From Nitrospiraceae bacterium UBA6898 (lineage in GTDB: Bacteria > Nitrospirota > Thermodesulfovibrionia > Thermodesulfovibrionales > UBA6898), in assembly GCA_002448975.1 (NCBI GenBank), contig DKBO01000079.1:1-42454 (forward strand): 42,454 nt of DNA, in the 5' to 3' direction. The notes below the pieces were generated by a model. It was not told the DNA's origin and did not search any database. It saw nothing but the letters and a program-made list of their open reading frames with translations. Both the position numbers and the translations under genes were made by a program. Positions 14,384-33,227 of this stretch are shown piece by piece. Numbering within the stretch: the first letter of the stretch is position 1; every line of letters begins with the position of its first letter.

Positions 14384-17300
14384 CTATGGCTGAATCGAAA
14401 AGAACAAATCGCTGGTATCTTTGCCTATGGTCTTCCCTGTGGCATCTTTCAGGACCACCATGACCCGACATTTATTCTTTTGTTTCGGGACAGTCGGCAC
14501 AGTCCCACTAAAACTACCCGGATCACCATCAATTTTTTGTAGAGTTTTCCATGTAATTCCACCATTCTTCGTATATTTCAGGATCACTTTTGCTACTGAG
14601 CCCTGAACAGATGGGCTGGTCTGCCATGTGATTGTTAAGGGAGTTCCTGCCGTCAGTGTTTCTCCACCATTCGGCGTCGTCAGCCTGACTGTTCCTTCTA
14701 TCGTGAAGAGTTCTGATAGGACCTTTCCCACTTTCACACCCTGCGCCGTATAGGCTACGACCTTGATACGACAGCTCATCTTATCCTTCTTTTGCGGTGG
14801 GGTGGGCCAGTTATAGGCGCGTTCCAAAATATTTTTGTCGATCAGGTTCCATGTTGTTCCGCTGTCCATTGAATAGAGCAATTTAAACTTTACCGCTTCA
14901 GGCGGCGCAGTCCATTGAATACGGTATGTCTCGCCTGAAGGCATCTTTTCAGCAGGCTGCGGCGTTATGAACGAAAAATAGTCAATGGCAGCAAAATTCG
15001 CGGTAATGTTCTTGTCGCCGTTCATCGTCACTGCCAATGGATTTGCCGAGCCCGTGGCATCACCGCTCCAGCCGGTAAACGTATATCCCGCAGCAGGTGT
15101 TGCTGTCAGCTGTACGTTCGTGCCATCAGCGTACACCGACTGATCAGGATTCTTGGCGACCGTGCCGTTGACGGCATTGATATCCAGTGAGCGCGGGATG
15201 GCCGTAAAGTTGGCGGTAATGTCTTTATCGGCATTCATAGTGACGGTAAGAGGGTTTGCCGAGCCCGAGGCATCACCGCTCCAGTTGGTGAATGTATAAC
15301 CCGCATCAGGTGTTGCTGTCAGCTGTACGTCCGTGCCATAAACATAGGTTGCCTGATTTGGACTCTTTGCAACTGAACCATGGACTGCCGGGACATTCAG
15401 CGTATACAGGATGGCCGTAAAGGTCGCGGTAATGTTCTTGTTGTCGTTCATGGTAACCGTACGCGGATTTGTAGTGCCGGTGGCATCGCCACTCCAGCCG
15501 GCAAAGGTCGATCCGGCCGCAGGTGTGGCTGTCAGGGTCACATCGGTATCAGCGGTGTAATCCTCTGTGCAGTCACTCCCGCAGCTTATCCCTCCGTCAT
15601 TGCTCGCTATCGTACCGGTCCCGGTCCCCGATTTCGAAACCGTCAGTGTATAGTTGTTTATACAGTATCCCTTCAAAAGCAGCCCGTCGTTATAGTGCTG
15701 CAGGACTTCGTAGCCGGGCAGGGACCGATTATAGAAGGCGACCTCGTCAAGACTTCCGTGAAAAAGATATTCGCCTGCGAGATGTCCCATATTGATCACG
15801 GTCGCAGCATCAAAACCGGATGAGTAGGTGAAATCCTGTGAATCTGTCTGTTCTCCGTCAACATAAAGAATGTTTTGCCCGAAGACACCGTCACGAACTC
15901 CCACAACATGATGCCAAGTCCCGTCATTGATGGCGGGTCCTGTCAAAGAAGCCGCCGGGCCATCACCGGAATTGTCGAGCAGAAGAAATTTCGCCGAGCC
16001 GGTTTCATTGCAGCCCAGATACCACTGGAGCCCCGGAGATACACCTGCGTCACGCCCAATGACAACCTCGAAATTTCCATTACAGGTTTGGCCGGCCACC
16101 CCTTTCAGCCAGAACTCTATCGAGAAACTGTCGGTTGAACCCCAGTCAAATGTAGTATCAGCTGCCACGTTCACTTCATTATTTCCGTTGAACAGTTGTG
16201 CATTATTGACACGCCCGGTCGTAAGCGAAGGGCAACTCGTACAGGTCGCATCAATACCTCCATAAAAGTCTCTGTAAGGAGATGTGTCCTCTTCAAGCGT
16301 CCAATAGTGAGACATGCCTGAAGGACATACGAGCGCATTTAAGATAATACTCTGTATATCGCCCCCTATTACGTTCGTGGCCTGAATTTCAACAGCGAAA
16401 TTACCGCTTGATGGAGGTGTTCCTGTGACAAGGCCTGTGTTGGTGTCGATATTCAGCCAATTGGGGGCCTTTTTAAGGCTGTAAGCCGGCGCCGGTTTTC
16501 CCGTGGCGGCAACGTCATACCTGATTGACTGCCCCACTGCTGCAAGCGTTAAAGGAGTTGAAATGATCACGGGTGCAGCATCTCCACATACCGGCAAGAA
16601 CGTATTCAGTCCGTTAAACCATACATCAGCCATCTTCTCATAACCCGCTTGTGTCGGATGAAGGGCGTCTTCCATATTATCTGGATAGGTAAGGGCATGT
16701 TCCTGATCAACAATAATAATTTTATCGCCATTGGCAATGCGGTTTTGAGCCATGCTCACGACATTATTATTAAATGTCGTAATTGCCCCGATGGGAACTT
16801 GCTCATTTATTATGCGGGAAAGAATAACAGTCACTTCCGAACTTGTATCTGCCTCATACTGGTCGATCTCATCTAATATTGCTTCAACATAAGCGGCGCT
16901 CGTATTGCCGGTACCATCTACTTCGTTGGTGCCGATATGCAGCAAGAGAACCTCGGCAGGATGCGTTGTCAACCAGGTATAAACACTACTTGACACGAGA
17001 GCTGCGGTATACGCTCCGTGCCCCTCATGGTCGATATCAAATGAAGGGATCGCCAATGCCCCGGATTGCTGGCTCCCGACAAAATTCACAGGGTAGCCCA
17101 AATTACTCAAGTCCAGGTACAGTTTTTGACGATACCCGATTTTGTAGTTATCATTCGTTACTGAAGGCCGGTAACCGCTCGTGATTGAGTCGCCGATCGG
17201 CATGATTCTGACCGGATTGGTACAGTCGGCACAATAGCCCTGGCGCAGACCAACAGACCCATCCCTATAATGCTGCAGAATCTCGACCCCTGTTAATGCC

Positions 17301-18025
17301 CTATGGTATAAGGCCACCTCATCAATGCTTCCGTGAAAATAATATTCGTTTGCGAGATGTCCTATGTTAAGCGACGCTGAAGAGTCAAAACCGGATGTGT
17401 AGGTTGTCGCCTGCGACTGTACTTTCTGCCCGTCAACATAGAGAATGTTTTGTCCCAGTATCCCCTGGCGAACTCCCACAACATGATGCCACGTCCCGTC
17501 ATTGATGACCGGCCCTGTCAAAGACACTGTCGGGCCATTACCGGAATTGTCATGTAAACGAAATTTCGCCGCGCCGGAAGTGTTGCAGCCCAGCCACCAC
17601 TGGAGGCTCCCGTCATCACGGCCGATGGCAACCTCGGTGTTCGTAGAACAGGTTTGGCCGGCTACCCCTTTCATCCAGAACTCCACTGAGAAACTGTCGG
17701 TCAATCCCCAATTGAAGGTTGCATCAGCAGGGACATCGATTCCATCATCGATTCCATCAAAGAGCAGTGCATTCAGAATCCTACCGCCGGCAAAACCCGG
17801 GCATGCAGGATCGATGCAAGCCGCATCATGACTTCCGACGAAATCCGCAAATGTTGTACCTGCAGTCTCGTCAAGCGTCCAGTAGGAAGTCAAGTTCGGG
17901 GGACACGTTCCTGCTGCCTGCGCTTGTGTTGCCCCTGCCAAAATAAATCCAGCGAGAAGGAAGAAAAAAGCTAAAGCGATAAAAAAATGAATCGAATACG
18001 GTCTTGAACATCCGAGTTTTTTCAT
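14384..18025 (-). CDS. secreted multidomain protein: signal peptide, LamG, SGNH/GDSL esterase, Ig-like, LamG, 3x InlB-type B-repeats, 2x C-terminal beta domains
   Basis: 1213 aa with AAGGAGA 7 nt upstream of the ATG.
- Signal peptide: FFIALAFFFLLAGFILAGATQAQA
- LamG-type blocks, present twice: WTLDE...FDG..D...VPAD..F.WG.TDSFS.EFW.KG...DGTWHHVVGVR..GQNILYVDG
- SGNH blocks: IGDSITSGY, GHGAYT, HIGTNE, DALHPTQAGY
- Ig-like segment: GKPAPAYSLKKAPNWLNIDTNTGLVTGTP
- Repeats: three YTLTV/..ATPAAGYTFTGWSGDATG..NP..VTMN.DK.ITANF units
- C-terminal domains: YSMDSGTTW (Asp-box-like) and YTKNGGITW. Confidence 0.85.
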   Translation of the reverse strand: MKKLGCSRPYSIHFFIALAFFFLLAGFILAGATQAQAAGTCPPNLTSYWTLDETAGTTFADFVGSHDAACIDPACPGFAGGRILNALLFDGIDDGIDVPADATFNWGLTDSFSVEFWMKGVAGQTCSTNTEVAIGRDDGSLQWWLGCNTSGAAKFRLHDNSGNGPTVSLTGPVINDGTWHHVVGVRQGILGQNILYVDGQKVQSQATTYTSGFDSSASLNIGHLANEYYFHGSIDEVALYHRALTGVEILQHYRDGSVGLRQGYCADCTNPVRIMPIGDSITSGYRPSVTNDNYKIGYRQKLYLDLSNLGYPVNFVGSQQSGALAIPSFDIDHEGHGAYTAALVSSSVYTWLTTHPAEVLLLHIGTNEVDGTGNTSAAYVEAILDEIDQYEADTSSEVTVILSRIINEQVPIGAITTFNNNVVSMAQNRIANGDKIIIVDQEHALTYPDNMEDALHPTQAGYEKMADVWFNGLNTFLPVCGDAAPVIISTPLTLAAVGQSIRYDVAATGKPAPAYSLKKAPNWLNIDTNTGLVTGTPPSSGNFAVEIQATNVIGGDIQSIILNALVCPSGMSHYWTLEEDTSPYRDFYGGIDATCTSCPSLTTGRVNNAQLFNGNNEVNVAADTTFDWGSTDSFSIEFWLKGVAGQTCNGNFEVVIGRDAGVSPGLQWYLGCNETGSAKFLLLDNSGDGPAASLTGPAINDGTWHHVVGVRDGVFGQNILYVDGEQTDSQDFTYSSGFDAATVINMGHLAGEYLFHGSLDEVAFYNRSLPGYEVLQHYNDGLLLKGYCINNYTLTVSKSGTGTGTIASNDGGISCGSDCTEDYTADTDVTLTATPAAGSTFAGWSGDATGTTNPRTVTMNDNKNITATFTAILYTLNVPAVHGSVAKSPNQATYVYGTDVQLTATPDAGYTFTNWSGDASGSANPLTVTMNADKDITANFTAIPRSLDINAVNGTVAKNPDQSVYADGTNVQLTATPAAGYTFTGWSGDATGSANPLAVTMNGDKNITANFAAIDYFSFITPQPAEKMPSGETYRIQWTAPPEAVKFKLLYSMDSGTTWNLIDKNILERAYNWPTPPQKKDKMSCRIKVVAYTAQGVKVGKVLSELFTIEGTVRLTTPNGGETLTAGTPLTITWQTSPSVQGSVAKVILKYTKNGGITWKTLQKIDGDPGSFSGTVPTVPKQKNKCRVMVVLKDATGKTIGKDTSDLFFSIQP
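14984..15655 (-). repeat. three tandem ~70-80-codon InlB-B-type repeats inside the 1213-aa gene
   Basis: The nucleotide-level repeat is visible. For example, ggcatcaccgctccag(c/t)(c/t)ggt(a/g)aa(c/t)gtata(t/a)cccgca(g/t)caggtgttgctgtcagctgtacgt occurs near 15055 and 15275, with a more diverged third copy near 15485. These cover residues 791-1014. Confidence 0.85.
15665..16327 (-). repeat. LamG module copy 2 (dispersed intragenic duplication)
   Basis: Residues 567-787 parallel residues 44-263. The DNA near 15901-15975 (catgatgccaagtcccgtcattgatggcgggtcctgtcaaaga...) matches 17481-17555 (catgatgccacgtcccgtcattgatgaccggccctgtcaaaga...). Confidence 0.8.
17237..17896 (-). repeat. LamG module copy 1 (dispersed intragenic duplication)
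   Basis: Partner of 15665-16327. It shows the same order of conserved blocks at both protein and DNA level. Confidence 0.8.
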
Positions 18026-18188: not shown

Positions 18189-18204
18189 AGCAATTGGTAT
18201 GCCA
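18189..18204 (-). promoter_or_regulatory. sigma-54 (-24/-12) promoter candidate for the 1213-aa gene
   Basis: The minus strand reads TGGCATaccaaTTGCT, which has the exact GG-N10-GC spacing of the consensus TGGCAC-N5-TTGCW. It lies about 165 nt upstream of the ATG at 18025, in a 646-nt non-coding gap. A sigma-54 activator is encoded at 38452-39918. Confidence 0.6.
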
Positions 18205-18671
18205 ATATCTATTGCGAAAGAGGTGAAACTGTTCGAAGGAATGCAGGATTATTTCTGGAGGGACAGGGGATGAAACTGCATTGTAACAGGCTGAATAATA
18301 AGCATTTATCTTGTTGGTTACTAAAAGCAACTCAATTACCTTTAGGATAAAAGGGAACCTACAATGTATCCCATAGCTACAACTTGAAAATCAAAGCTGT
18401 TTCCAATAGAAACAGGGCAAGGTCCTGTTATGCTTTCAGGATGATAGTTATCCTGATTATACTCGCTTTCGTACTAGCTGTTTGGGCACATGAATTTTGC
18501 CTAAGAGAAGTTCAGTTCTTCAACGTTGCTCGGTAACGGATCAAAATTCCCGCCCCAGCAATGTATTTTATAGGTCTCACTGCCTTCACCATCCATTGAG
18601 CGGGATATACTCTTAAAAGTATCCTGATTATCATGACCAGCCGGATGTCAGGCAATATCCTATGGTGCCAG

Positions 18672-19379
18672 TCAGATAAGGCCGAGAGAACGTTCAGCAT
18701 AACGCACCGCATCCACAAAACTGCGACATTTTTCCATGTTTTTCACGAGAGGACCGCCCGGTATACGGTCGCTGACACCAGATTCTACATCAACGCCAAA
18801 CGGTCGAACGGTACTGAGAGCTTCCCCGACATTCCCGGCGTTCAAACCACCTGCCAGGAAAACCGGGAGCAGTGTTCTCTTGACGATTTCCGCGCAATGC
18901 TTCCAGTCACCCACCTTGCCTGTGCCCCCAACCCGATAGCTATCGAGAAGGATGCCGTCAACCACGGGTTCATAGGTGCTTAGAAAGACCCCATCGTCCG
19001 GGCTGAAGTTCTCTTCGGGACAGGCCGACATCACCTTGAGGATCTTTAGATCGTCCGGGGCTTGTTGGCGCAGCAGTCGTATGTGATCTACAGGCCAATC
19101 CGGATAGAGCTGGATAGTGTCCATTCGCAGCCTGGGCAAAATTTTATCGCAAAGCACGTCAAACGCCACGTCGGTCAACAATACCTTGTCAATGGTCTGA
19201 GGAAGATACCTGAAGATCTCCTGGAACTTCGCGGTCTTTTCCTCGACATTCTGGTGTTTGAAGACGTGAAAACCGAGCGCATCCACGCCCAACGAGCATG
19301 CTTCGTAGGCCGGATCCAGGCATTCAAACTCGCAGAGCTTGATTCTGATAGACTTAGCGGATCGGTCCAATAGCGTCAT
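18672..19379 (-). CDS. phosphoribosylanthranilate isomerase (TrpF)-like TIM-barrel protein
   Basis: 235 aa with IKLCEF (N-terminal Cys region), ILLDSYRVGGTGKVGDW, VFLAGGLNAGNV and PFGVDVESGVS. These match the TrpF signature blocks. Confidence 0.7.
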   Translation of the reverse strand: MTLLDRSAKSIRIKLCEFECLDPAYEACSLGVDALGFHVFKHQNVEEKTAKFQEIFRYLPQTIDKVLLTDVAFDVLCDKILPRLRMDTIQLYPDWPVDHIRLLRQQAPDDLKILKVMSACPEENFSPDDGVFLSTYEPVVDGILLDSYRVGGTGKVGDWKHCAEIVKRTLLPVFLAGGLNAGNVGEALSTVRPFGVDVESGVSDRIPGGPLVKNMEKCRSFVDAVRYAERSLGLI

Positions 19380-19400
19380 GTTGCTATTATCTGCAGCTGG

Positions 19401-20165
19401 TCAACGGATTAGCGCGGTTTCGAGTGAAGACAGGTATTCAGCAACGTCTTGCGGACCTCGGCCCATCGTTTCCAAAAAAGCAGTGCCGATAATCACTGCG
19501 TCGAGCCCCGCGATCACGGAAAGGGTTTTAATGTCTTCTGCGCTTCGAATTCCAAACCCTGCAGCAATCTTGGCTGAAGGGCATATCGACTTGGTGGTTT
19601 CGATACATTTCTTCAGCTCGGCATTGCTGAACAACTCTGCTCCCGTCAAGGGTGCTGACATCAAATATACGAGTGGCTTGGGTATGGCGAGCGAGAGTAT
19701 CTCCTGAACCCTCTGCTCGGACATCCACGGGCCGACACACTGCACAAGCTCCATGCCATGGCGGTTGGCTGTTTCAACATAGGGAGCCTCATTCTCCTCC
19801 GACCATTCTAGAATGAGCCCTTCCCAAGCACCCTTGTTATCAATAAGTACCTGCTCGAACGAAGATTTCTCAACCGTCCCCTTGTACAATACGCATAACG
19901 CCGGTGTGGTCGGCCGCCTTAGGGGTATGGCAGCCGTATACCGACAGGCCTCGATGTGGGCACGTTTTATGGTATTGTTTGCATGGTTGGAAAAGCCGTC
20001 GCTTGTGGGAATTGTCGTCTCAATAATAGATACGAAATTGGCCGCATCCAGCTGGGAGAGTATGTTCTCGAATTGAGAAGGATCCGGATAATTCGGCACA
20101 ACATAGATGATCAGTCCCTGTCGGCCTTCCTGGTTAGCCTTTTCTATCGCATTATGAAACTTCAT
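19401..20165 (-). CDS. divergent tryptophan synthase alpha (TrpA)-like TIM-barrel protein
   Basis: 254 aa. LIIYVVPNYPD and IIETTIPTSDG align by eye with TrpA AGDPD and ELGIPFSDP. AAGFGIRSAEDI and DAVIIGTAF match the TrpA phosphate-binding GFGIS and G-S-A loops. The second catalytic Asp region looks altered (SNHANN). Confidence 0.6.
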   Translation of the reverse strand: MKFHNAIEKANQEGRQGLIIYVVPNYPDPSQFENILSQLDAANFVSIIETTIPTSDGFSNHANNTIKRAHIEACRYTAAIPLRRPTTPALCVLYKGTVEKSSFEQVLIDNKGAWEGLILEWSEENEAPYVETANRHGMELVQCVGPWMSEQRVQEILSLAIPKPLVYLMSAPLTGAELFSNAELKKCIETTKSICPSAKIAAGFGIRSAEDIKTLSVIAGLDAVIIGTAFLETMGRGPQDVAEYLSSLETALIR

Positions 20166-21400
20166 GGCTTTTTCTTACCATTATACCCTGTCCATTCCTC
20201 AAATTGTTCGGCTGGGGTGATATTTTCCACGGACCACGATTCGACGAATTCCCTGGCCTTGCTCCACGTTGGAATAGGTTTCGGGAGATACCATGAGTGT
20301 GCAGATGGAACCGGGACGTCCCATTTGGGAGCTGTGCCATTTTTCCTCTGTCGGCCAAGAATCTCCTTGGAATACCGCCCCAGAGCCCACATGAAAGCTG
20401 CCGAGCATATCAACGAGATGGGATCTCCCAACTCAATCTTGACCCGCCCGTCCGTTCCCATGGGCAGCTGGAAGGGTTTCAGAAGACATTCAACAGTATC
20501 CACATAGCGGACGACCGTCAGCGGGTCAGCATATTTTTGGGCTTGTATTCTCGTCTCAAGGCACTGATTGAGAAACCCCGGGAGATGCGGGTTCCTGCTG
20601 CCAAAGAAAAAAACCGTATTGACTGCCGAGAAATGACCCTTTTGGTATAGATCCGCAATCAACGTACCGTATAACCCTACGTCCAGAATGAGCGTCTGGC
20701 CAAGGGCCAAAGTCCTCGTGAGACGTATTTGTCCATTACGGTATTCATGAAACAGCAGCGGCGATTCGCCTCTGTCGCGCAGAGGCCGCGTGTATACGAG
20801 AAAATTCAGCGGGATGGGATTCTTACCCCTCTGCAATGCACGCAGAGCAGGCCAGAAAAGCAGGGCATCCCTCAAGAAAAGCATCATGCTGTCAACCTTT
20901 CCCTTGCAGCCGGCAGCTAAAGCATCCTCCGCAAAGCCATGGAGAACGGGTAGCAGATAAGATGTGCTGTCCAGATAGCGTCGCACAATCTCAACGAGGA
21001 ATCGCCTCGTCGGAAGACATGCAACTCGGTGATCCTGGATTTGCGCAAAGAGCGCGCTCGAAACAACATAGCCTTCTGCATCGTCTTCCCGGGAGAGATT
21101 CCGATAGAGCAGCGAGAGAAGAGCGCCGGGGTCGGCAGACCCTGTATCCAGGCCGATGTAATTGATGCAGGCGTCCACCAATGATGCCAAGGATTCTGCC
21201 TGATCAGTCAGGGCAAGAAACTGTATCAGATCCGGCAGTCCAACCTCAACGTCCCGGATGATCAAAGCAGGGGGAAGCTGGTCTAAATCGACAGATGAAC
21301 CGCGGTAAAGCAACGGGATGCGCTCACCTGACAATTTTTCCATCTCCGGCAGAAAATCGAGCCGGGATATATCATCTAAAGGTGTACCTAAAATACTCAT
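20162..21400 (-). CDS. hypothetical protein, 412 aa, no motif recognised
   Basis: A long ORF with a 4-nt ATGA overlap with the TrpA-like gene. It is the first gene after the sigma-54 promoter candidate. It has no TM segments or signal peptide, and I could not assign a family by eye. Confidence 0.6.
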   Translation of the reverse strand: MSILGTPLDDISRLDFLPEMEKLSGERIPLLYRGSSVDLDQLPPALIIRDVEVGLPDLIQFLALTDQAESLASLVDACINYIGLDTGSADPGALLSLLYRNLSREDDAEGYVVSSALFAQIQDHRVACLPTRRFLVEIVRRYLDSTSYLLPVLHGFAEDALAAGCKGKVDSMMLFLRDALLFWPALRALQRGKNPIPLNFLVYTRPLRDRGESPLLFHEYRNGQIRLTRTLALGQTLILDVGLYGTLIADLYQKGHFSAVNTVFFFGSRNPHLPGFLNQCLETRIQAQKYADPLTVVRYVDTVECLLKPFQLPMGTDGRVKIELGDPISLICSAAFMWALGRYSKEILGRQRKNGTAPKWDVPVPSAHSWYLPKPIPTWSKAREFVESWSVENITPAEQFEEWTGYNGKKKP

Positions 21401-21596: not shown

Positions 21597-21612
21597 AGCA
21601 AAATAAATGCCA
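21597..21612 (-). promoter_or_regulatory. sigma-54 (-24/-12) promoter candidate for the 412-aa/TrpA-like/TrpF-like unit
   Basis: The minus strand reads TGGCATttattTTGCT with exact consensus spacing. It lies about 197 nt upstream of the ATG at 21400, in a 332-nt AT-rich intergenic gap. Confidence 0.6.
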
Positions 21613-21732: not shown

Positions 21733-22542
21733 CTACATGAATTCAGCCATCGGATCACAGGTCATATCAGCCCGCATTTTCACCACTCGGGCGGGATTAC
21801 CGAGAGCGATCGCGCCATCCGGAATATCACGTGTGACCACGGAACCTGCGCCGACAACCGCTCCCCTGCCAATCCGGACTCCGCTCAGCACTATTGTCCC
21901 AAAGCCGATCCAGGCCTCATCTTCTATAATGATGGCTCCTTTCGATTGCACAGGCTGCTTGCGGATAGGTTTGTCCGGCAGGACACCATGATCATAGGAA
22001 TAGAAAGCACAGTTTGGCGCAATCATTACGCCGCTGCCGATCTCGACGGGGGCAACATATGCATTCACCTGGCACCGGGGATGAATACTGGAATCGTCTC
22101 CGATTTTCAGATAGCCCCCATGACCTGTTTCGAGAATGGTATCTCTGTATATGTAGACCCGTTCGCCTATTTCGATGGGACCTGCATCCTCTCTCTGAAA
22201 GATTACAACGCGTTCGTCCATGAAAATGTTTTTCCCGAGCCGCAGATCTGAATGATAAATCGTTACGCTCGGTGCAATATACCCTCTCGAATTCATATGA
22301 GCGAGATAAGGCCGTGATTTATGCGGAGGAGCAGGCAAGGCCGCAAATCGCGCTGCCATGCGCCCGAAGAAGCCGACTCCAGCAAACCTCATCCAAAAAC
22401 GCATCCAATACTTCGTCAGGACATTAAGACTGCTTGGGTGCCGATAGGTATTAATGATATAGTGTGCCCTTTTCTGTAAACCCATGTAATTTTCCAGAAC
22501 TTGGTCGATAGATGAAAGCGCAAGGGGAAGGTTGATCTGCAC
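21733..22542 (-). CDS. left-handed beta-helix (hexapeptide-repeat) sugar O-acetyltransferase
   Basis: 269 aa. The C-terminal half holds the hexapeptide repeats IGDDSSIHPRCQV, IGSGVMIAPNCAF, IIEDEAWIGFGTIVLSGVRIGRGAVVGAGSVVTRDIP..AIALGNPARV. The N-terminal extension is about 100 aa. Confidence 0.8.
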   Translation of the reverse strand: MQINLPLALSSIDQVLENYMGLQKRAHYIINTYRHPSSLNVLTKYWMRFWMRFAGVGFFGRMAARFAALPAPPHKSRPYLAHMNSRGYIAPSVTIYHSDLRLGKNIFMDERVVIFQREDAGPIEIGERVYIYRDTILETGHGGYLKIGDDSSIHPRCQVNAYVAPVEIGSGVMIAPNCAFYSYDHGVLPDKPIRKQPVQSKGAIIIEDEAWIGFGTIVLSGVRIGRGAVVGAGSVVTRDIPDGAIALGNPARVVKMRADMTCDPMAEFM

Positions 22543-22551
22543 TATAGCAGG

Positions 22552-23442
22552 TCAACAAACGGATCTGCTTTGCGGGTGCCCCATAAAAATACCCCTCAGA
22601 GAGTTTCCTCCCAAAATGACAAGAATTTTCTGGAACGCCACCCCACTGACCATGGCCAGGCCGGCCAATACAAACAGTGCATCCTGAAGATGCTTGCTCG
22701 CCATTTCATGTAAGCCCGTCAACGGGAGAAGCAGAATTAAGAAGATGCCAGGCACCAGATGCCCCAGGCCCAGAACAACTAAAAGAGACAGGGGATTGCG
22801 GAGAATCGCCGTAGCCGCGCGTAAAGCATGGTTCGCCTGAGGGATCCGCACATAAATACCGTATACAAATAAATTCAGAACCAGACATACAATCCCTGTG
22901 ACAACCATTTGGGTCGAAAATGCCAATCCGCTCAGGCCCGACACGATTAGCAGCAGCCCGCAACCTCCAACAATGCTCGAGGTAAAAAAGCTAATTGGTG
23001 CAAGCGGCACATTCCAGGCTGTCACTGCCCTGGCACGATAGACCATGCAACCCTGGCTTATCACATAGACAAGGACAGCCCCGACAGAGAGCACATGCAG
23101 GAGGGGGTGTGGGAATAGCCAGTTCATCGATGCCAACAAGACAAATACTGTTCCCGACAAAACCTCTCGCGACATCCAGGAACTCTTGAGGTTGCCCAAA
23201 ATGTAAACGCCTCGCAGCGGCCTGCCAGCTTCAAAGGTCATGAAAAGGAATCCCAGGACAATAAGGAGAGGAGACAGCAACATGGATATCATGTCCTGGG
23301 GTTCGCTGAAAGCAATCCCTTCCCGCAAAGATATATCGAAAAAGCGCAGCACGTAAAAGCCCGAAGCCATGCCCCCCATAAAAAAATTAAAAACTGCGGG
23401 CCAGCCCCACACCCTGTATTTTACTGGTTGAATATGTTCCAT
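22552..23442 (-). CDS. NrfD/PsrC/DmsC-family integral membrane quinone-interacting subunit
   Basis: 296 aa and polytopic. It has WGWPAVFNFFMGGMASGFYV and EAGRPLRGVYILGNLKSSWMSREVLSG, which are hallmark NrfD-family blocks. Confidence 0.8.
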   Translation of the reverse strand: MEHIQPVKYRVWGWPAVFNFFMGGMASGFYVLRFFDISLREGIAFSEPQDMISMLLSPLLIVLGFLFMTFEAGRPLRGVYILGNLKSSWMSREVLSGTVFVLLASMNWLFPHPLLHVLSVGAVLVYVISQGCMVYRARAVTAWNVPLAPISFFTSSIVGGCGLLLIVSGLSGLAFSTQMVVTGIVCLVLNLFVYGIYVRIPQANHALRAATAILRNPLSLLVVLGLGHLVPGIFLILLLPLTGLHEMASKHLQDALFVLAGLAMVSGVAFQKILVILGGNSLRGIFMGHPQSRSVC

Positions 23443-23463
23443 GCTCTGTTCCCGCGAATCTGC

Positions 23464-24105
23464 TCAGTCCACAATGTAGTAAACTGAGGGATCAGTTCCT
23501 AATTCCTCCTGGAGTCTGGCTGTTTTTCCCTCGCGCAACAGTTGCGAAACCACACTGTCGGGATCGTCTAAATCGCCAAATCGCATGGCTTTGGCACTGC
23601 AAGAGATCACGCACTGGGGAGAGGCGTCAGCATCCCGACCGGGCCGGCACCCCTTTCTCATGCCATCGGCAATCTTCGGCAGACAGAAATTACATTTGGT
23701 TGCGACACCCACGCGGTCGGGGTTGGTGTCAGACCCACCCAATCCATGAACAATATTCTTCACTTCCAAGTCATATTTGTCGTGAAATATAATACTGCGG
23801 GCTTGATACGGGCAGGCCACAATGCAGTACCCGCACCCTACACAACGCTCATTTCTGATAGCGACTATTCCGTCGGATCTCCGGTGTGAAGCGGCAGTGG
23901 GGCAGACCTCAACACACGGGGCTTTGCCGCAGTGCATACAGCTTATCGGGATAAACGTTCTTATCCTTTCAGGAGTGGGCGATAATCCACAATCAAAAAC
24001 GCGGCGCCAACTATTGACGGGGACCCTGTTTGTCTGCTTGCAGACAATAGTGCAGGCCTTGCATCCGATACACTTTCTCAGGTCAATGACCATTCCCAAC
24101 CGCAA
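23464..24105 (-). CDS. four-cluster 4Fe-4S ferredoxin subunit (PsrB/NrfC/DmsB-type)
   Basis: 213 aa with cysteine groups CIGCKACTIVC, CMHCGKAPCVEVCP, CVGCGYCIVACP and CNFC. There is no twin-arginine leader. Confidence 0.85.
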   Translation of the reverse strand: MRLGMVIDLRKCIGCKACTIVCKQTNRVPVNSWRRVFDCGLSPTPERIRTFIPISCMHCGKAPCVEVCPTAASHRRSDGIVAIRNERCVGCGYCIVACPYQARSIIFHDKYDLEVKNIVHGLGGSDTNPDRVGVATKCNFCLPKIADGMRKGCRPGRDADASPQCVISCSAKAMRFGDLDDPDSVVSQLLREGKTARLQEELGTDPSVYYIVD

Positions 24106-24140
24106 CGTATGTCTCCCTTCACAAAATGCGGCACATCACT

Positions 24141-25781
24141 TCATCCCATGATGCCCTTAATATGATCGGCAAGCCTAATCGCAAGAGCGACGGCAGTAAG
24201 CACCGGATTCGCATAGCCACCCGTCGGGAATAAGGAGGGCCCCGCTATGTATAGATTTGAAGTGTCGTGGACGCGGCAATTTTCATCAACGACTCCTTTT
24301 TTGGGATCCGTGTGAATCCGTGTCGTACCCATGTGATGCCATCCTCCCACAATTTTCGGGATGTCGTTTTCGTCCCTGAGGTCGATCTGCAGGCTGCCAA
24401 GACCGGAGGAACGAACTTCCTCATCCATTATTTCCTGTGCCCTCATAACGCTGCGTATGTCTAAAGGGCTCAATTTCCAGTCCAATCTGACGCGCCTTCG
24501 ACCCAGGGCATCACATTCATCAGAAAGTGATACACGACTATCGGGGTTCGGAATCTGTTCAGTCATTTGATCAAGCTGGTACACGATGACCTTCTTTTGC
24601 TTATGTAAGAAACGCCCGCATCTGCGCAGTGCATTCTTCCGAACAGCTGTGGCTACTCCGCCGAGATTGGCAGCCACATCCTTCAACTGGCCGGTAAAAT
24701 CATCTGGAAGCCGTCCGTCAACCATTACTGACCGAAGAAGCCTGCGTGCCTTGGCCCCTTCAGACTGGTCGGCCTGAAGGGGCAGGTTATCCGGCCGCAC
24801 ACGGGGAAGAATGGAAACGCAATAGTTTGCCAATCTCTCATTTCGCAGCGTATTTTCAGATAGAGTCAATTTCGCCATTATGGGAACGGACTTTGTCTTA
24901 TGGATTCTGTACAGGGCAGTCTCATTATAAGTGTCAGGCCTGTCCGGAAGGTAAAAGCCTGAGTAGAAGTGAAGATGCTCCATAAAAAATCTGCCAACCA
25001 GATCATTTTGATTGCCGATTCCGTCACGCTGCTTCTTGTTCGAAAGTAATAGGAGTCGGGGGGTATCGATTCCTCCCAGCGCCAAAATGTAAAGTTTTGC
25101 TGAAACCCGGAATCTATTGCCCTCCAGGCAGGCCGCATGAATATGCGATACGGTCTGAGCAGCCGTATCCGTCTCCATTTCTACTGCATTGGCGAAAACG
25201 TAAGCACTGATATTCTCTGCCCTTCCAATTTCTTCTCTATAATCATTGAAAAAAGGGTCGCGTGGACCGAACTGGAATATCGCGGTCTTCATCCTTTCCG
25301 AAACAAAGGGAAGTTTGGGGGTTATCTCAGGGTCTTCCCAATCTTCGACCTCGTATGTATAGGGACCTATGCGGCAGACAGAGTGAGCGCGTTCATAAAA
25401 GGGATCAAGATAGGACTTGTCAAAAGGCCATCCGCTGTGCGGGAGCCAGTCACGCTCCTCGAAATCGATCGCGTCCAGGGGCCTCAGACGCACCCCGATA
25501 CGGTTATCCCCCAGTTCAACACTCCACCGATGACTGGACCCACCGAAAGCACAGCCCCGTGCGGTATCAAGCTCATAGTAAGGGAGGCCGACATTTTCTC
25601 CCCAGTAAAGCGACTGTGTTGCCCTGTCAGGTTCAAGTCCGCCGCTTTCCAGAAGACAGACCTTGAATTCTTTTCCTATGAACTCCCTGGCCACAGTAAT
25701 GCCTGCTATACCGGCACCTACGATGCAGACATCAGCCCGGATTGTCTTGTTTGACGGCAATGTACGCGCGTCGATAATCAT
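24141..25781 (-). CDS. GMC-family FAD-dependent oxidoreductase
   Basis: 546 aa. It has an N-terminal DVCIVGAGIAGITVA Rossmann motif and a C-terminal GGWHHMGTTRIHTDPKKGVVDENCRVHDTSNLYIAGPSLFPTGGYANPVLT (GMC_oxred_C-type active-site block). There is no signal peptide. Confidence 0.85.
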   Translation of the reverse strand: MIIDARTLPSNKTIRADVCIVGAGIAGITVAREFIGKEFKVCLLESGGLEPDRATQSLYWGENVGLPYYELDTARGCAFGGSSHRWSVELGDNRIGVRLRPLDAIDFEERDWLPHSGWPFDKSYLDPFYERAHSVCRIGPYTYEVEDWEDPEITPKLPFVSERMKTAIFQFGPRDPFFNDYREEIGRAENISAYVFANAVEMETDTAAQTVSHIHAACLEGNRFRVSAKLYILALGGIDTPRLLLLSNKKQRDGIGNQNDLVGRFFMEHLHFYSGFYLPDRPDTYNETALYRIHKTKSVPIMAKLTLSENTLRNERLANYCVSILPRVRPDNLPLQADQSEGAKARRLLRSVMVDGRLPDDFTGQLKDVAANLGGVATAVRKNALRRCGRFLHKQKKVIVYQLDQMTEQIPNPDSRVSLSDECDALGRRRVRLDWKLSPLDIRSVMRAQEIMDEEVRSSGLGSLQIDLRDENDIPKIVGGWHHMGTTRIHTDPKKGVVDENCRVHDTSNLYIAGPSLFPTGGYANPVLTAVALAIRLADHIKGIMG

Positions 25782-25875: not shown

Positions 25876-27177
25876 TCACTGCGCGCCGGTACGTTTTTCA
25901 GCCGTAAGAGACCCAGTTCCGCCGGGCTGCAACAGACGCGCATCGCGTGAGGAAAAGGACCGTGCAGAGACATTTGCAATAACACCTTTTATTTTGCCTC
26001 GCCAGTAATTGATCATCTCATGTCTTCGGAAAATGGTATTTTTTCTCTCGATAATTTTTGCCAGATCGCCAAGGCCTTTATCTCTCAAATAAGGGAGCAA
26101 TTCCAGATAATAATAGGGGTCCAATTCTTTCTGGAGACTCATTGTCTTATGCAGGTCGCGTGCCTGGAAGACTTCTGTCCTGTCGAGAACGCCTACTATC
26201 TCGAGCGCCAGCATCGTGCGGAGACATTTCTCACATCTGCCGCAATTCAGCAGGCCCGGTCTATAGCTTTTATAATTGTTACAGACACGCAAATTCTGAA
26301 GTGCCGCTTCCGAGTCGGCGACTATTCTCGTCTTGTCCAGCCTTGACAGGGTGATACCGTCATGCCGAATTCTTAAATTGAGACTGCTGTAGTTCAGATC
26401 AAGGACGGGATGGGTGCCGTAAGGGCGGGGATGTTTTCCGTTTGTGGCTAACGCTTCTTCAGGAAGAGAGTCGGTTGCCGGGATGGATACAACCGTGAGC
26501 CGGCGGGAAAGTGCATGCGCGACAGCAGACAGCGCCGCAGACTGAAATTCATATGTCCAGAATTTGAATTTATTGCCCGCATCTTCCTGCCGGTAATTCA
26601 GGTAGACATTCGTATAGACAGGAATAAGCGTTATGTCCAGTGCATCGGCAGCCCTCTTCATCGGATCAAGAACATATTTGAAGATCTCAGGATCATCCTG
26701 TTCAAGCCCATAGATCAGCAGACCATCTTTAACTGATCCGGGGTGCTCCAATGGATAATCACGACGGTTTGTGAGCAGGGTTGCAAAGGAGTCTATTCCG
26801 CCGGAAAAAAACGACCCCGCACGCGCAGGAGGATGCGGGTGAGAACCGTTTGAGCGCAACGCCGCCTCAATCCGGACCGGCCGGCGTCCAGGTTCATAAA
26901 ACCAATGGCACAGCCACGTCATGGCGGTGAGCAGGCCATTCCTCAGTTCAGGGCAGATTTCACCATCAATGAAAACCCTTTCTTCTCCGAAGTGCAGGGC
27001 AGGGATAGCGCACCCGATTAAGAATGCATGGGGGTCGCAGGACAGGCTCTCTGAAAATTGCTCATCCACTTCAAAGAAAAGATCATAGGCCGGACGTTCA
27101 CAGTCCTCCCAGGTCACCGTCGCCGCGGCCCTCGCTTTGTTGCCGTTTTTTTCTGACCTCAGGTTTTCTATTTTCAT
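25876..27177 (-). CDS. PP-loop (SGGxDS) ATP-pyrophosphatase-like protein with a QueC-like Cys motif and an unknown N-terminal domain
   Basis: 433 aa. GSFFSGGIDSFATLL is the PP-loop. The C-terminal LNCGRCEKCLRTMLAL resembles the QueC-type CxxCxxC zinc site. The first ~120 aa have no motif I recognise. Confidence 0.55.
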   Translation of the reverse strand: MKIENLRSEKNGNKARAAATVTWEDCERPAYDLFFEVDEQFSESLSCDPHAFLIGCAIPALHFGEERVFIDGEICPELRNGLLTAMTWLCHWFYEPGRRPVRIEAALRSNGSHPHPPARAGSFFSGGIDSFATLLTNRRDYPLEHPGSVKDGLLIYGLEQDDPEIFKYVLDPMKRAADALDITLIPVYTNVYLNYRQEDAGNKFKFWTYEFQSAALSAVAHALSRRLTVVSIPATDSLPEEALATNGKHPRPYGTHPVLDLNYSSLNLRIRHDGITLSRLDKTRIVADSEAALQNLRVCNNYKSYRPGLLNCGRCEKCLRTMLALEIVGVLDRTEVFQARDLHKTMSLQKELDPYYYLELLPYLRDKGLGDLAKIIERKNTIFRRHEMINYWRGKIKGVIANVSARSFSSRDARLLQPGGTGSLTAEKRTGAQ

Positions 27178-31444: not shown

Positions 31445-32170
31445 TTATCTTGCACTGCAGGAATAAACTGCATCGAGTATTTCTTCCTGATTGCGGACGA
31501 AGATCCTCATGGCTGTCTCCTCGCCGAAGAGAGAGACTACTTCCCTGAATGCTTCCGAGAGTTGCGGTGGCCGCATCCGCACATCATGGCCATCAGATGC
31601 AACAAAATCAACAAGCCCCATTCTGAGCAATGCGTAACTGACATTTCGGATCTCTCTTCCGAACCCTCCCGTGATACTCTGGGCCGTTATCTGCGACATT
31701 GCACCGCATTCCCTCAATCTCCTCAGCAGTGCCGGACGCCTCGCGAGGAGAAGATGTCGTTCGGGATGCGTGATTATCGGGATGACCTTGTGCTGCCGAA
31801 GTTCAAGGATAAGGTCCTCCAATCGGGGCGGGAGTGCGAGGGAGGGGAATTCAAGAAGGAGATAGCCAGAGCCGTTCAGGGTCGGGATGTCTTCATTTTC
31901 TATCCTCTCCAGAAGATTATGACATATTCTTACGTCAGCGCCATACAGGAGCTGCAGACCGTTGGGAAGACTGCCTTTCAGTTTTTCACATGTCTCCTTG
32001 ATCACGGCCGTCCCATTCCGGTAGAGACCATCCAGAATATGCGGTGTTGCAAACATGTGGGTTATACCATCATCGATCGCCATCTTTGCCATGGCAACTG
32101 AATCCTGAACAGCCCCGGGGCCATCGTCTATCCCAGGCAGGATATGGCAGTGAATATCAATAAAGCTCAA
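31445..32170 (-). CDS. cpsB: CpsB/CapC-type PHP-domain protein-tyrosine phosphatase
   Basis: 241 aa with a TTG start overlapping the upstream TGA. It has IDIHCHILPGIDDGP, ATPH and ITHPERH metal-binding motifs. Confidence 0.85.
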   Translation of the reverse strand: MSFIDIHCHILPGIDDGPGAVQDSVAMAKMAIDDGITHMFATPHILDGLYRNGTAVIKETCEKLKGSLPNGLQLLYGADVRICHNLLERIENEDIPTLNGSGYLLLEFPSLALPPRLEDLILELRQHKVIPIITHPERHLLLARRPALLRRLRECGAMSQITAQSITGGFGREIRNVSYALLRMGLVDFVASDGHDVRMRPPQLSEAFREVVSLFGEETAMRIFVRNQEEILDAVYSCSAR

Positions 32171-32451
32171 AAGTGCCTCCCTGTTTGATATGAGCTGAGA
32201 TGCTTTGCGTCATAATCTGCTCCGGCTGTTCCAGGAGAGCACCTTTTTCGTCCCAGCCCTCTCTGATTTGCGTTGTTTACCGTAATCCTATCTCCGTTAT
32301 CCCGAAATTCCGCGTTCGTGACAGCGCAGCCGATTTTTCCCATAAACCGGAACCTATCGGTCACGATCAAGCTTTCAACCCCTGGACAGCTTTCTTCCTT
32401 CATGTCCCTCTGAACGCTTCTTTTCTGTTTCCCCTTATCCTCGAAGATCAT
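32167..32451 (-). CDS. hypothetical 94-aa protein
   Basis: Its start overlaps the upstream stop in ATGA, and its stop overlaps the CpsB TTG start in TTGA. No motif recognised. Confidence 0.4.
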   Translation of the reverse strand: MIFEDKGKQKRSVQRDMKEESCPGVESLIVTDRFRFMGKIGCAVTNAEFRDNGDRITVNNANQRGLGRKRCSPGTAGADYDAKHLSSYQTGRHF

Positions 32452-33227
32452 TGTGCAACAAAGACGGCATTCCTGTTTTCGAGGAATAATACGAAAAGGA
32501 TGAGAATACAGATCAGAATCACGAGCGGCAGAATTATCTTTGAAATCAGCTTTCTCGGTCCGGCCGGCATGACATAATGCACCCGCATCTGTGAAGCGTG
32601 TCTGAGCGGAGCTTTCTTTTTCATGCCCCCCGGCGGTTGAACTGAGACGGGTCTCTTCCGCATGAACTTTCTGTCATATTCCATTCTCTTTCCAGTATCT
32701 TTCAGAACACTATAAACCTCGTTGATTTTGCTCGTACAGCTGACCCAGTTGCCCCCATCACTACGGTGCCTGTCAGGGTGGTAGAGCATCATGAGGCTCT
32801 TCCAGCGATCATGGATCTGGTCAGCCGTTACATTATGGGGCAGCCCCAGGGTGAAATAGTAATCATTCTCGGGATTGAAATATACCCTGTCGAGAATCTT
32901 GTTCAGGTTATCAATCACATAACTCCGATCTATACTGCTCTGAGCCAGGAAACTCTTTGCCCCCGGCGCATCACCCAAGAGATCGATAAAGGCATCGAAA
33001 TTCCTGACAACCTTTATGCTGAATCGCTCCCAGGAAATACCACCCCTAACTTCCCCAATAAATTCAAGGGCATCCTGGTAGTTCACTTGCTTTTTCCCAT
33101 TGTCATGCCGGGATTTCATTCCTTCGTCTGGCCTGTCTTTGCAGATTCGGTCACAATAGACTGTCGGTGAGGCACCCTGTATGTTTCCCCTGAAGAAGAA
33201 CTTATCTCCGGCCAAAAAACAGTTCAT
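32448..33227 (-). CDS. J-domain (DnaJ-like) protein with a C-terminal transmembrane anchor
   Basis: The J-domain is DYYFTLGLPHNVTADQIHDRWKSLMMLYHPDRH...INEVYSVLKDTGKRMEYD, with the HPD tripeptide. The C-terminal hydrophobic helix is ISKIILPLVILICILILFVLFL. The start is uncertain: ATG at 33227 or 33119. The 33296 start would overlap the upstream gene by 95 nt. Confidence 0.7.
   Translation of the reverse strand: MNCFLAGDKFFFRGNIQGASPTVYCDRICKDRPDEGMKSRHDNGKKQVNYQDALEFIGEVRGGISWERFSIKVVRNFDAFIDLLGDAPGAKSFLAQSSIDRSYVIDNLNKILDRVYFNPENDYYFTLGLPHNVTADQIHDRWKSLMMLYHPDRHRSDGGNWVSCTSKINEVYSVLKDTGKRMEYDRKFMRKRPVSVQPPGGMKKKAPLRHASQMRVHYVMPAGPRKLISKIILPLVILICILILFVLFLENRNAVFVAQ

Follow-up and report, generated by a model that had tools for sequence, protein, structure and literature searches.

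A conserved three-gene cassette of a phosphoribosyltransferase-like protein and TrpA-like and TrpF-like barrels: a tentative route to 2-aminoimidazoles

Contig DKBO01000079.1 of Nitrospiraceae bacterium UBA6898, analysed here from position 1 to 42,454 (the window), carries a minus-strand unit of three genes that encode a 412-aa protein, a TrpA-like (beta/alpha)8 barrel and a TrpF-like (beta/alpha)8 barrel. We propose that this unit is a 2-aminoimidazole synthase dependent on phosphoribosyl pyrophosphate (PRPP), built from a new family of phosphoribosyltransferases (PRTs) and from neofunctionalised paralogues of TrpF and TrpA, and we put the probability of this reading at roughly 30%. The conversion of guanidine to 2-aminoimidazole is a tentative assignment in its own right. 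That the three genes form a self-contained biosynthetic cassette, which applies the reaction scheme of tryptophan and histidine synthesis to a different substrate, is in our judgement an even bet. We lean slightly towards the general scheme, in which PRPP-dependent N-ribosylation is followed by an Amadori rearrangement and by a cleavage that releases glyceraldehyde-3-phosphate (G3P), and which is not tryptophan synthesis. The first-pass annotation of this DNA had already suggested that paralogues of TrpA and TrpF were recruited, together with the 412-aa protein, to a pathway other than that of tryptophan. This suggestion is borne out by equivalog scores far below cut-off, by the loss of the residues equivalent to TrpA Asp60 and TrpF Arg36, and by the conservation of the triad.

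Two recruited barrels and a phosphoribosyltransferase-like protein

The TrpF-like protein matches the Pfam family PRAI (PF00697, E 1.2e-16) and reaches 103.9 bits against its best NCBIfam equivalog, NF002298, which has a cut-off of 215; the barrels match His_biosynth at E 0.0035 only. Equivalents of Cys7 (RIKLCEFE/KLCEF) and Asp126 (LLDS), in the numbering of the Thermotoga maritima enzyme, are kept in at least 90% of 119 subfamily members, and the loops GGTG, LAGGL and GVDVE.GVS are conserved among them. The signature blocks quoted at first pass stand in the translation as ILLDSYRVGGTGKVGDW, FLAGGLNAGNV and FGVDVESGVS. Arg36 of T. maritima TrpF binds the carboxylate of anthranilate. The corresponding 'S.R' segment has become LGFH.F.H.Q in the subfamily, and no Arg is conserved across the 119 members. 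We propose that this protein catalyses the Amadori rearrangement of an N-(5-phosphoribosyl) compound that is not phosphoribosyl-anthranilate.

The TrpA-like protein matches Trp_syntA (PF00290) over residues 9-246 (E 1.1e-19) and scores 55.6 bits against TIGR00262 (cut-off 102.35) and 59.3 bits against NF009621 (cut-off 234), both NCBI equivalogs. Its subfamily is small (66 clusters found), and 61 members were aligned with Salmonella TrpA. Catalytic Glu49 is invariant across the subfamily, also in a set of 40 members, and aligns with the IE of maize BX1 and of the TrpA chains in the PDB; the phosphate loops GFG and G-T are invariant as well. The motifs quoted earlier for this protein are present as IIETTIPTSDGFSNHANN, GFGIRS and IIGTAF. 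At the position of Asp60, a catalytic residue that binds indole, the window protein has Asn and the 61 members have D, E, N, S, A, P or G, so that the second catalytic Asp, suspected at first pass to be missing, is indeed replaced. A 2-residue insertion gives rise to a conserved loop, F-S-x-H-A-N...TIR.AH, and a HMMER alignment to BX1 agrees. No trpB adjoins the TrpA-like gene in the 42-kb window or in the surveyed loci. These features are consistent with a proposed retro-aldolase that releases G3P from a non-indole substrate.

Among PDB sequences, the TrpA-like protein matches BX1 itself best (E 3e-11). Maize homologues of the BX1/IGL type are TrpB-independent paralogues of TrpA that release a free heterocycle, as we propose for the cassette protein. 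Unlike the bacterial subfamily, with a loop and upstream enzymes peculiar to it, BX1 keeps Asp60 and uses the indole-3-glycerol phosphate of the normal pathway. Judged by their sequences, both cassette barrels are distinct subfamilies, paralogues and not housekeeping TrpA and TrpF. Because the catalytic residues are kept while the residues specific to the tryptophan-pathway substrates are lost, the barrels probably still catalyse an Amadori isomerisation and a retro-aldol cleavage that frees a triose phosphate, with altered substrate pockets.

The 412-aa protein returned nothing from Pfam, NCBIfam, PADLOC or a PDB-sequence profile search. Its family is rare: a search of 5.8 billion proteins gave 22 clusters, and an exhaustive hidden Markov model (HMM) search against 1.84 billion representatives gave 119 at E up to 1e-3. 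The alignment shows the conserved motifs LFLRDA..FWP, TR, LDVGLYGT, GSRNP and VDTVECLLKP. An AlphaFold2 model of the full-length protein has a mean predicted local distance difference test (pLDDT) score of 81.5 and a predicted template-modelling (TM) score of 0.85, and an independent, domain-only model has a pLDDT of 86.8. In the model an N-terminal helical domain is followed by a beta-alpha-beta-hairpin-beta-alpha-beta core, an order compatible with the core of type I PRTs. Foldseek searches of the PDB return type I PRTs (HGPRT, OPRT, PyrR) as 45 of the 50 top matches to the full-length model, the best with E 6e-3, probability 1.0 and a target TM of 0.48, and PRTs as all 50 top matches to the domain-only model. 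A type I PRT-like fold is thus likely for this protein, in which the first-pass annotation had seen no recognisable motif; that statement is corrected by the PRT-like core of the model.

Two invariant motifs of the family lie where a PRT would have its functional loops. R177-D178 comes after the first core strand, and D240-V-G-L-Y-G-T (D240-x-G-x-x-G-T) follows a core strand. When mapped from the order of secondary structures and general knowledge of PRTs, rather than by superposition, they would take the positions of the pyrophosphate loop and of the PRPP motif, respectively. The PRPP motif of type I PRTs spans 13 residues: four hydrophobic residues, two acidic residues and then T/S-G-x-T. 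In the candidate of the 412-aa family, TLILDVGLYGTLI, four hydrophobic residues precede a single invariant Asp, an invariant G..G and a near-invariant T. In the model, residues ~165-330 resemble HGPRT, OPRT, PyrR and the C-domain of PurF in fold and in the order of strands, at weak TM-scores, and a Gly-rich loop after an acidic residue lies at the putative PRPP-motif position. Unlike these enzymes, the 412-aa protein is extended by a large helical domain at the N-terminus and by a further segment at the C-terminus, has no sequence match to PF00156, holds a single acidic residue in the motif, and carries GSRNP and VDTVECLLKP, which have no PRT counterpart. We infer from the model that it is the founder of a new PRT-like family and a putative PRPP-dependent N-phosphoribosyltransferase, and we propose that it supplies the missing TrpD-like first step.

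Two other assignments were considered. That of the 412-aa protein as a glycan ribofuranosyltransferase (gPRT/CriT-like) is not supported by Foldseek, whose sole match of this kind, 8a0m, stands at rank 49 (TMq 0.29, root-mean-square deviation 14.9). A role in anti-phage defence was rejected: the unit has no PADLOC matches, and its partner genes are metabolic.

Conservation of the triad and its partner genes

We scanned 42 fetched loci (given L numbers below) with HMMs of the PRT-like, TrpA-like and TrpF-like families; a scan of a genome collection with exact peptide patterns of the 412-aa family gave 4 loci. The PRT-like gene precedes the TrpA-like gene in every locus with enough upstream sequence, and the TrpF-like gene follows it in nearly every locus with enough sequence. 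The triad is present in a Gemmatimonadota chromosome (L001), in metagenome-assembled genomes (MAGs) of other Gemmatimonadota (L002, L009), in a 'Deltaproteobacteria' MAG (L010), in Sorangium sp. So ce1014 (L005; CP150356, at about 1.883-1.887 Mb) and in many metagenome contigs, and this gene order spans Gemmatimonadota, Myxococcota (Sorangium), 'Deltaproteobacteria' and Ectothiorhodospiraceae. The 412-aa protein is 35-46% identical in distant relatives. In ~40 loci, trpB, trpC, trpD and trpE never stand alongside the triad. The first-pass annotation would have given up its proposal if the 412-aa open reading frame (ORF) were not conserved next to the barrels; the triad is in fact kept together in distant relatives and in unrelated surroundings.

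These surroundings differ from locus to locus. Glycan genes flank the cassette in the window, in L014-L016, which are its closest relatives, and in L003, where it lies between glycosyltransferase and flippase genes; glycoside hydrolases are found in L001 and housekeeping genes in L002. The triads of L017 and L018 are 69, 85 and 88% identical to that of the window, and no other gene is held in common. Because these loci share the triad alone with the window, the glycan setting is incidental and the cassette autonomous. The earlier description of the unit as embedded between glycan genes needs a correction in this respect: those genes are no part of the unit, and only a minority of the other loci are glycan loci.

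Partial variants of the cassette also occur. In L008 the PRT-like gene is followed directly by the TrpF-like gene, and L012 and L013 hold a variant PRT-like gene, a TrpF-like gene, a 2-hydroxyacid dehydrogenase gene and a cupin gene and lack a TrpA-like gene. Since both variants keep the transferase and the isomerase, these two form the tightest pair. In L012 (6099-11721) and L013, from Chitinophagaceae bacterium BSSC1, the genes present are for an AAA_18 kinase-like protein, a 365-aa protein without known family, the 2-hydroxyacid dehydrogenase, the variant PRT-like protein, the TrpF-like protein and an oxygenase of the Cupin_8/JmjC kind. Such a gene set suggests that the Amadori product is reduced or hydroxylated in this branch, and not cleaved. 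The Gemmatimonadota genome that holds the L001 triad (CP070666) has a second, solo TrpA-like gene (L006, 9635-10795), the product of which is 54% identical to that of the window. Just 5' of it lies a 36-bit PRT-like remnant, an AMP-binding enzyme adjoins, and there is no TrpF-like gene; L006 looks like a decayed or re-used copy of the cassette.

About one third of the loci hold a sister type of cassette, in which the 5' gene is related to the 412-aa family more distantly. Among them are L011 (Ectothiorhodospiraceae BW-2), L027, L028, L031-L033, L035, L036 and L038. An hhalign comparison of the sister PRT-like family with the window family gives E 6e-5 and a probability of 65% over 179 columns, and pairs FLLRDTLL and VE(S/T)G..GT of the former with LFLRDALL and LDVGLYGT of the latter. 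An SxtG-like amidinotransferase (E 1e-153 to PDB 6u1r) is encoded in nine of the ten sister loci with a TrpA-like gene, the tenth (L032) being a 3.6-kb fragment; none is encoded in the TrpA-less loci L012 and L013. Three sister loci have a SpeA-like arginine decarboxylase gene in the same operon. Amidinotransferase and arginine decarboxylase are enzymes that make guanidino compounds. L028 (1-7610) holds two sister cassettes on one contig, the first with PRT-like, TrpF-like, TrpA-like and amidinotransferase genes and the second with a PRT-like gene split into two ORFs, followed by TrpA-like and TrpF-like genes.

A second kind of partner is found in four window-type cassettes (L005, L026, L040 and one further contig), where a heme-oxygenase-like diiron oxidase (HDO) is encoded between the TrpA-like and TrpF-like proteins. 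In the known azomycin route, arginine is converted to 2-aminoimidazole via RohP, RohR and RohQ. The best PDB match of the Sorangium HDO (L005) is RohS, at E 5e-49 and 39% identity over 251 aa with the HxxxDxxH metal motif intact, and the next is SznF at 6e-14; the L040 HDO likewise matches RohS best (E 5e-37). RohS is the N-oxygenase that oxidises 2-aminoimidazole to the antibiotic azomycin, the azomycin cluster consists of five genes, rohPQRST, and experimentally verified RohS orthologues are only 39% identical to each other (PMC13133933). The RohS-like partner is therefore as close to RohS as verified orthologues are among themselves, which suggests the same class of amine substrate. RohP, RohR and RohQ are not evident among Pfam-annotated neighbours in L005 or in the window, although no search with Roh protein queries was made. 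A Rieske domain is fused to the HDO in L005, and to the TrpF-like protein in the further HDO contig and in three TrpF-like clusters.

Other genes accompany these loci. Both RohS-type cassettes that have long flanks, L005 (6036-8363) and the further HDO contig, are accompanied by genes for an EamA-type transporter and an ATP-grasp enzyme resembling L-amino-acid ligases, which hints at a conjugated and exported final product. In L040, the operon instead includes an APC amino-acid permease gene and is followed by one for a Peripla_BP_6 binding protein.

A proposed pathway and the alternatives to it

We propose four steps. In the first, the 412-aa protein would move 5-phosphoribose from PRPP to an acceptor nitrogen, as fold and gene order suggest; the acceptor would most likely be a guanidino group, either of free guanidine or of a compound of the arginine or agmatine type. 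The TrpF-like protein, through its conserved Cys and Asp, would then carry out an Amadori rearrangement to a 1-amino-1-deoxyribulose-5-phosphate derivative. HisA, which performs an Amadori rearrangement of an amidine N-riboside, sets a precedent for this step. On chemical grounds, the second guanidine nitrogen could next close on the C2 ketone to yield a 2-aminoimidazole with a glycerol-phosphate tail, an analogue of indole- or imidazole-glycerol phosphate. Finally, the TrpA-like protein, by means of Glu49, its phosphate loops and perhaps the new His, would split off G3P and leave a 2-aminoimidazole-type heterocycle. Both later reactions have known counterparts, as HisF and TrpC close rings onto a C2 ketone and TrpA cleaves a heteroaryl-glycerol phosphate. 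Alternatively, an open-chain imine might be cleaved to guanidinoacetaldehyde, which would cyclise by itself to the same product. The net reaction would be guanidine + PRPP -> 2-aminoimidazole + G3P + pyrophosphate + water. The window cassette would end at the amine, and the Sorangium type, with its in-operon RohS-like enzyme, would continue to a nitro compound or nitroimidazole. In the sister type, the amidinotransferase would provide the acceptor, sometimes together with the arginine decarboxylase.

The scheme follows the logic of TrpD-TrpF-(TrpC)-TrpA, that is, N-ribosylation from PRPP, Amadori rearrangement, ring closure and retro-aldol release of G3P, and two of the three cassette proteins are homologues of TrpF and TrpA that keep the catalytic Cys/Asp and Glu. 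It differs from the tryptophan pathway in that the transferase would be type I PRT-like, whereas TrpD is of type III, and in that TrpC and TrpB are missing, TrpF Arg36 and TrpA Asp60 are not conserved, and the TrpA-like protein has the new F-S-x-H-A-N loop. The closest chemical precedent is HisG-HisA-HisF, in which an amidine N-riboside derived from PRPP undergoes an Amadori rearrangement and an imidazole ring with a glycerol-phosphate tail is formed. In the cassette, by comparison, the barrels are of TrpF/TrpA type and not of HisA/HisF type, and the tail would be removed rather than kept. The likeness to rohPQRST lies in the RohS-family HDO inside some of the cassettes; the window cassette has no RohS.

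Several points weigh against the proposed 2-aminoimidazole synthase. No sequence method ties the 412-aa protein to PRTs, and none of 22 family members matches Pfam, including Pribosyltran (PF00156), at E up to 10. The Foldseek matches to PRTs are consistent but weak (TM 0.3-0.48, E ~5e-3), and because the TM-scores are weak the fold assignment is likely rather than certain. The candidate PRPP motif has one acidic residue in place of two, and its spacing is off by one residue. A ring-closing enzyme of the TrpC or HisF kind is not encoded in the cassette, so the third step must be spontaneous or be done by one of the three proteins, and at physiological pH the nitrogens of guanidine are only weakly nucleophilic. 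The RohS-like HDO is absent from the window and present in a minority of cassettes only. The window-type cassette has neither an amidinotransferase nor a guanidine riboswitch, and nothing in it names the acceptor. Moreover, the pathway could run in either sense, towards synthesis or towards breakdown.

The same three-step scheme may act on an acceptor other than a guanidine, such as ammonia, urea, an amidine or an aromatic or heteroaromatic amine, and yield another heterocycle or an N-substituted aminoacetaldehyde. The window-type cassette, lacking an amidinotransferase, fits this account, the amino-acid permease and Peripla_BP_6 genes beside some cassettes suggest an imported substrate, and RohS-family enzymes could take other amino-heteroaromatics. 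We nonetheless regard it as rather unlikely, given the guanidine-forming enzyme in nine of the ten sister loci that hold a TrpA-like gene and a RohS-like partner that resembles RohS as closely as verified orthologues resemble one another.

Alternatively, the PRT-like protein could move phosphoribose from PRPP to a sugar or amino sugar of the local polysaccharide, with the barrels remodelling the pentose. PRPP-dependent ribosylation of glycans is established, a large glycan locus surrounds the cassette in the window and L014-L016, and in L003 the cassette lies between glycosyltransferase and flippase genes. Such glycan tailoring is nevertheless improbable: TrpF chemistry requires an N-glycoside, the unit has its own putative promoter, and glycan genes are not found near the cassette in L017, L018 (with triads 69-88% identical) or the majority of other loci.

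Slightly more improbable still is a catabolic or salvage pathway that runs in the opposite sense, in which an N-ribosyl or Amadori compound would be broken down to G3P, or a heterocycle scavenged with G3P, and the PRT-like protein would be phosphorylase-like or a PyrR-like regulator. In principle the reactions of TrpA, TrpF and PRTs can also run backwards, the structural matches include regulators of the PyrR type, and glycoside hydrolases and transporters adjoin the L001 cassette. Yet the partners look biosynthetic (amidinotransferase, arginine decarboxylase, RohS-like N-oxygenase, ATP-grasp ligase, EamA exporter), and the core has no kinase or phosphatase.

That the two barrels are simply the true trpA and trpF of a displaced ordinary tryptophan pathway, as their Trp_syntA and PRAI matches and the labels 'tryptophan synthase alpha' and 'phosphoribosylanthranilate isomerase' of relatives in source databases would have it, is effectively excluded by scores of about half the equivalog cut-offs or less, by residues (TrpA Asp60 and TrpF Arg36 are not conserved), by the absence of adjacent trpB and trpC from ~40 loci, by two copies of the TrpA-like subfamily in one Gemmatimonadota genome, and by partners that are an amidinotransferase or an N-oxygenase.

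Local setting and wider meaning

The first-pass layout of the unit, three minus-strand ORFs of given sizes with an ATGA overlap and a 21-nt gap, is exact in its coordinates (Table 1). Read directly, the junction of genes 1 and 2 is a stop/start overlap, aaaaagccATGAagttt, which points to translational coupling, and the gap between genes 2 and 3 is 21 nt. The promoter claimed for the unit is likewise supported: an intergenic -24/-12 element lies on the matching strand, 197-212 nt 5' of the gene 1 ATG. Of three close relatives, two (L014 and L015) have it at the same position (CTGGTATTAAATTTGCA) and the third, L016, has a degenerate form; distant loci lack it. The window contains two matches to TGGCAYN5TTGCW, where 0.12 would be expected, each of them between genes and 5' of a minus-strand gene, and a response regulator of the NtrC type, a sigma-54 activator (enhancer-binding protein), is encoded in the window. 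We propose that the unit is transcribed from its own putative sigma-54 promoter. The long 5' leader is poorly conserved among close relatives, and an Rfam scan of ~230 kb (the window and the loci) for a guanidine or other riboswitch gave no match.

On the 3' side, a weak terminator-like hairpin stands between gene 3 and the second sigma-54 site. Since terminator-like sites are no more numerous than in shuffled sequence, a boundary of the unit at this hairpin is only tentative. The gene after the second site encodes a secreted 1213-aa LamG/GDSL/InlB-repeat protein.

Table 1. Coordinates of the cassette genes, putative control signals and other features of the window
Feature	Position	Strand	Basis
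Gene 1, 412-aa protein (proposed PRPP-dependent N-phosphoribosyltransferase)	20162-21400	(-)	ORF list and translation
Gene 2, 254-aa TrpA-like (beta/alpha)8 barrel (proposed retro-aldolase)	19401-20165	(-)	ORF and Pfam Trp_syntA
Gene 3, 235-aa TrpF-like (beta/alpha)8 barrel (proposed Amadori isomerase)	18672-19379	(-)	ORF and Pfam PRAI
Sigma-54-type -24/-12 element, TGGCATTTATTTTGCT	21597-21612	(-)	GG-N10-GC spacing, TGGCAC-N5-TTGCW-like
Second sigma-54 -24/-12 site, TGGCATACCAATTGCT	18189-18204	(-)	pattern match; ~165 nt 5' of next gene
Weak terminator-like hairpin, CTGTTTCTATTGGAAACAG then CTTTGATTTT	18397-18415	(-)	consensus scan only
Secreted LamG/GDSL/InlB-repeat protein	14384-18025		
Block with GMC oxidoreductase and acetyltransferase	21733-25781	(-)	
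433-aa ORF	25876-27177	(-)	no Pfam match
Tyrosine phosphatase and DnaJ-domain protein	31445-33296	(-)	
NtrC-type sigma-54 activator	38452-39918	(-)	

Around the unit, the window is occupied by a single large polysaccharide locus whose genes are co-directional, with glycosyltransferases, Wzy, a DegT aminotransferase, Wzm/Wzt, UDP-GlcNAc 2-epimerase and dTDP-sugar enzymes. Among the scanned ORFs of at least 150 aa across the 42 kb there is no trpB, trpC, trpD or trpE, as had been reported at first pass. Four genes within this locus form a block that is syntenic in L014-L016; their products are a GMC oxidoreductase of 546 aa, a 4Fe-4S protein of 213 aa that resembles DsrO/NrfC, an NrfD/DmsC-like membrane protein of 296 aa and a hexapeptide acetyltransferase of 269 aa. 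The block resembles a module for quinone-coupled oxidation of a sugar or alcohol, an unusual thing to find in a polysaccharide locus. The 433-aa ORF lies between the GMC oxidoreductase gene and a glycosyltransferase gene. Further along, a tyrosine phosphatase of the CpsB/CapC type (241 aa) is encoded with a DnaJ-domain protein (282 aa), the latter odd in such a locus.

The folds and reaction types discussed here are known. In Pfam, NCBIfam, PADLOC and the searchable literature, we did not find the cassette, the PRT-like family or the two barrel subfamilies described; for the cassette itself, the literature was searched from the angles of TrpF/TrpA-like proteins, amidinotransferase, HDO, 2-aminoimidazole, nitroimidazole and guanidine/PRPP. 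2-Aminoimidazoles are anti-biofilm scaffolds, and nitroimidazole antibiotics derive from them.

If our proposal is true, the cassette would add to the route by arginine oxidation a second, independent one to natural products of the 2-aminoimidazole and nitroimidazole kind, and would be a third 'heteroaryl-glycerol-phosphate' pathway beside those of tryptophan and histidine. The sequence of PRPP, Amadori and retro-aldol chemistry would have been reused for another heterocycle, which would make the cassette a clean natural case of the recruitment of (beta/alpha)8 barrels at the level of a whole pathway. The 412-aa protein would represent a PRT family that profile databases miss, and the automatic naming of subfamily proteins as TrpA and TrpF in several sources would have to be corrected. 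In practical terms, the three enzymes would offer a short biocatalytic route to 2-aminoimidazoles, and the cassettes with a RohS-like N-oxygenase would point to producers such as Sorangium. Even with another acceptor, the triad would be a compact, testable metabolic unit found in several phyla.

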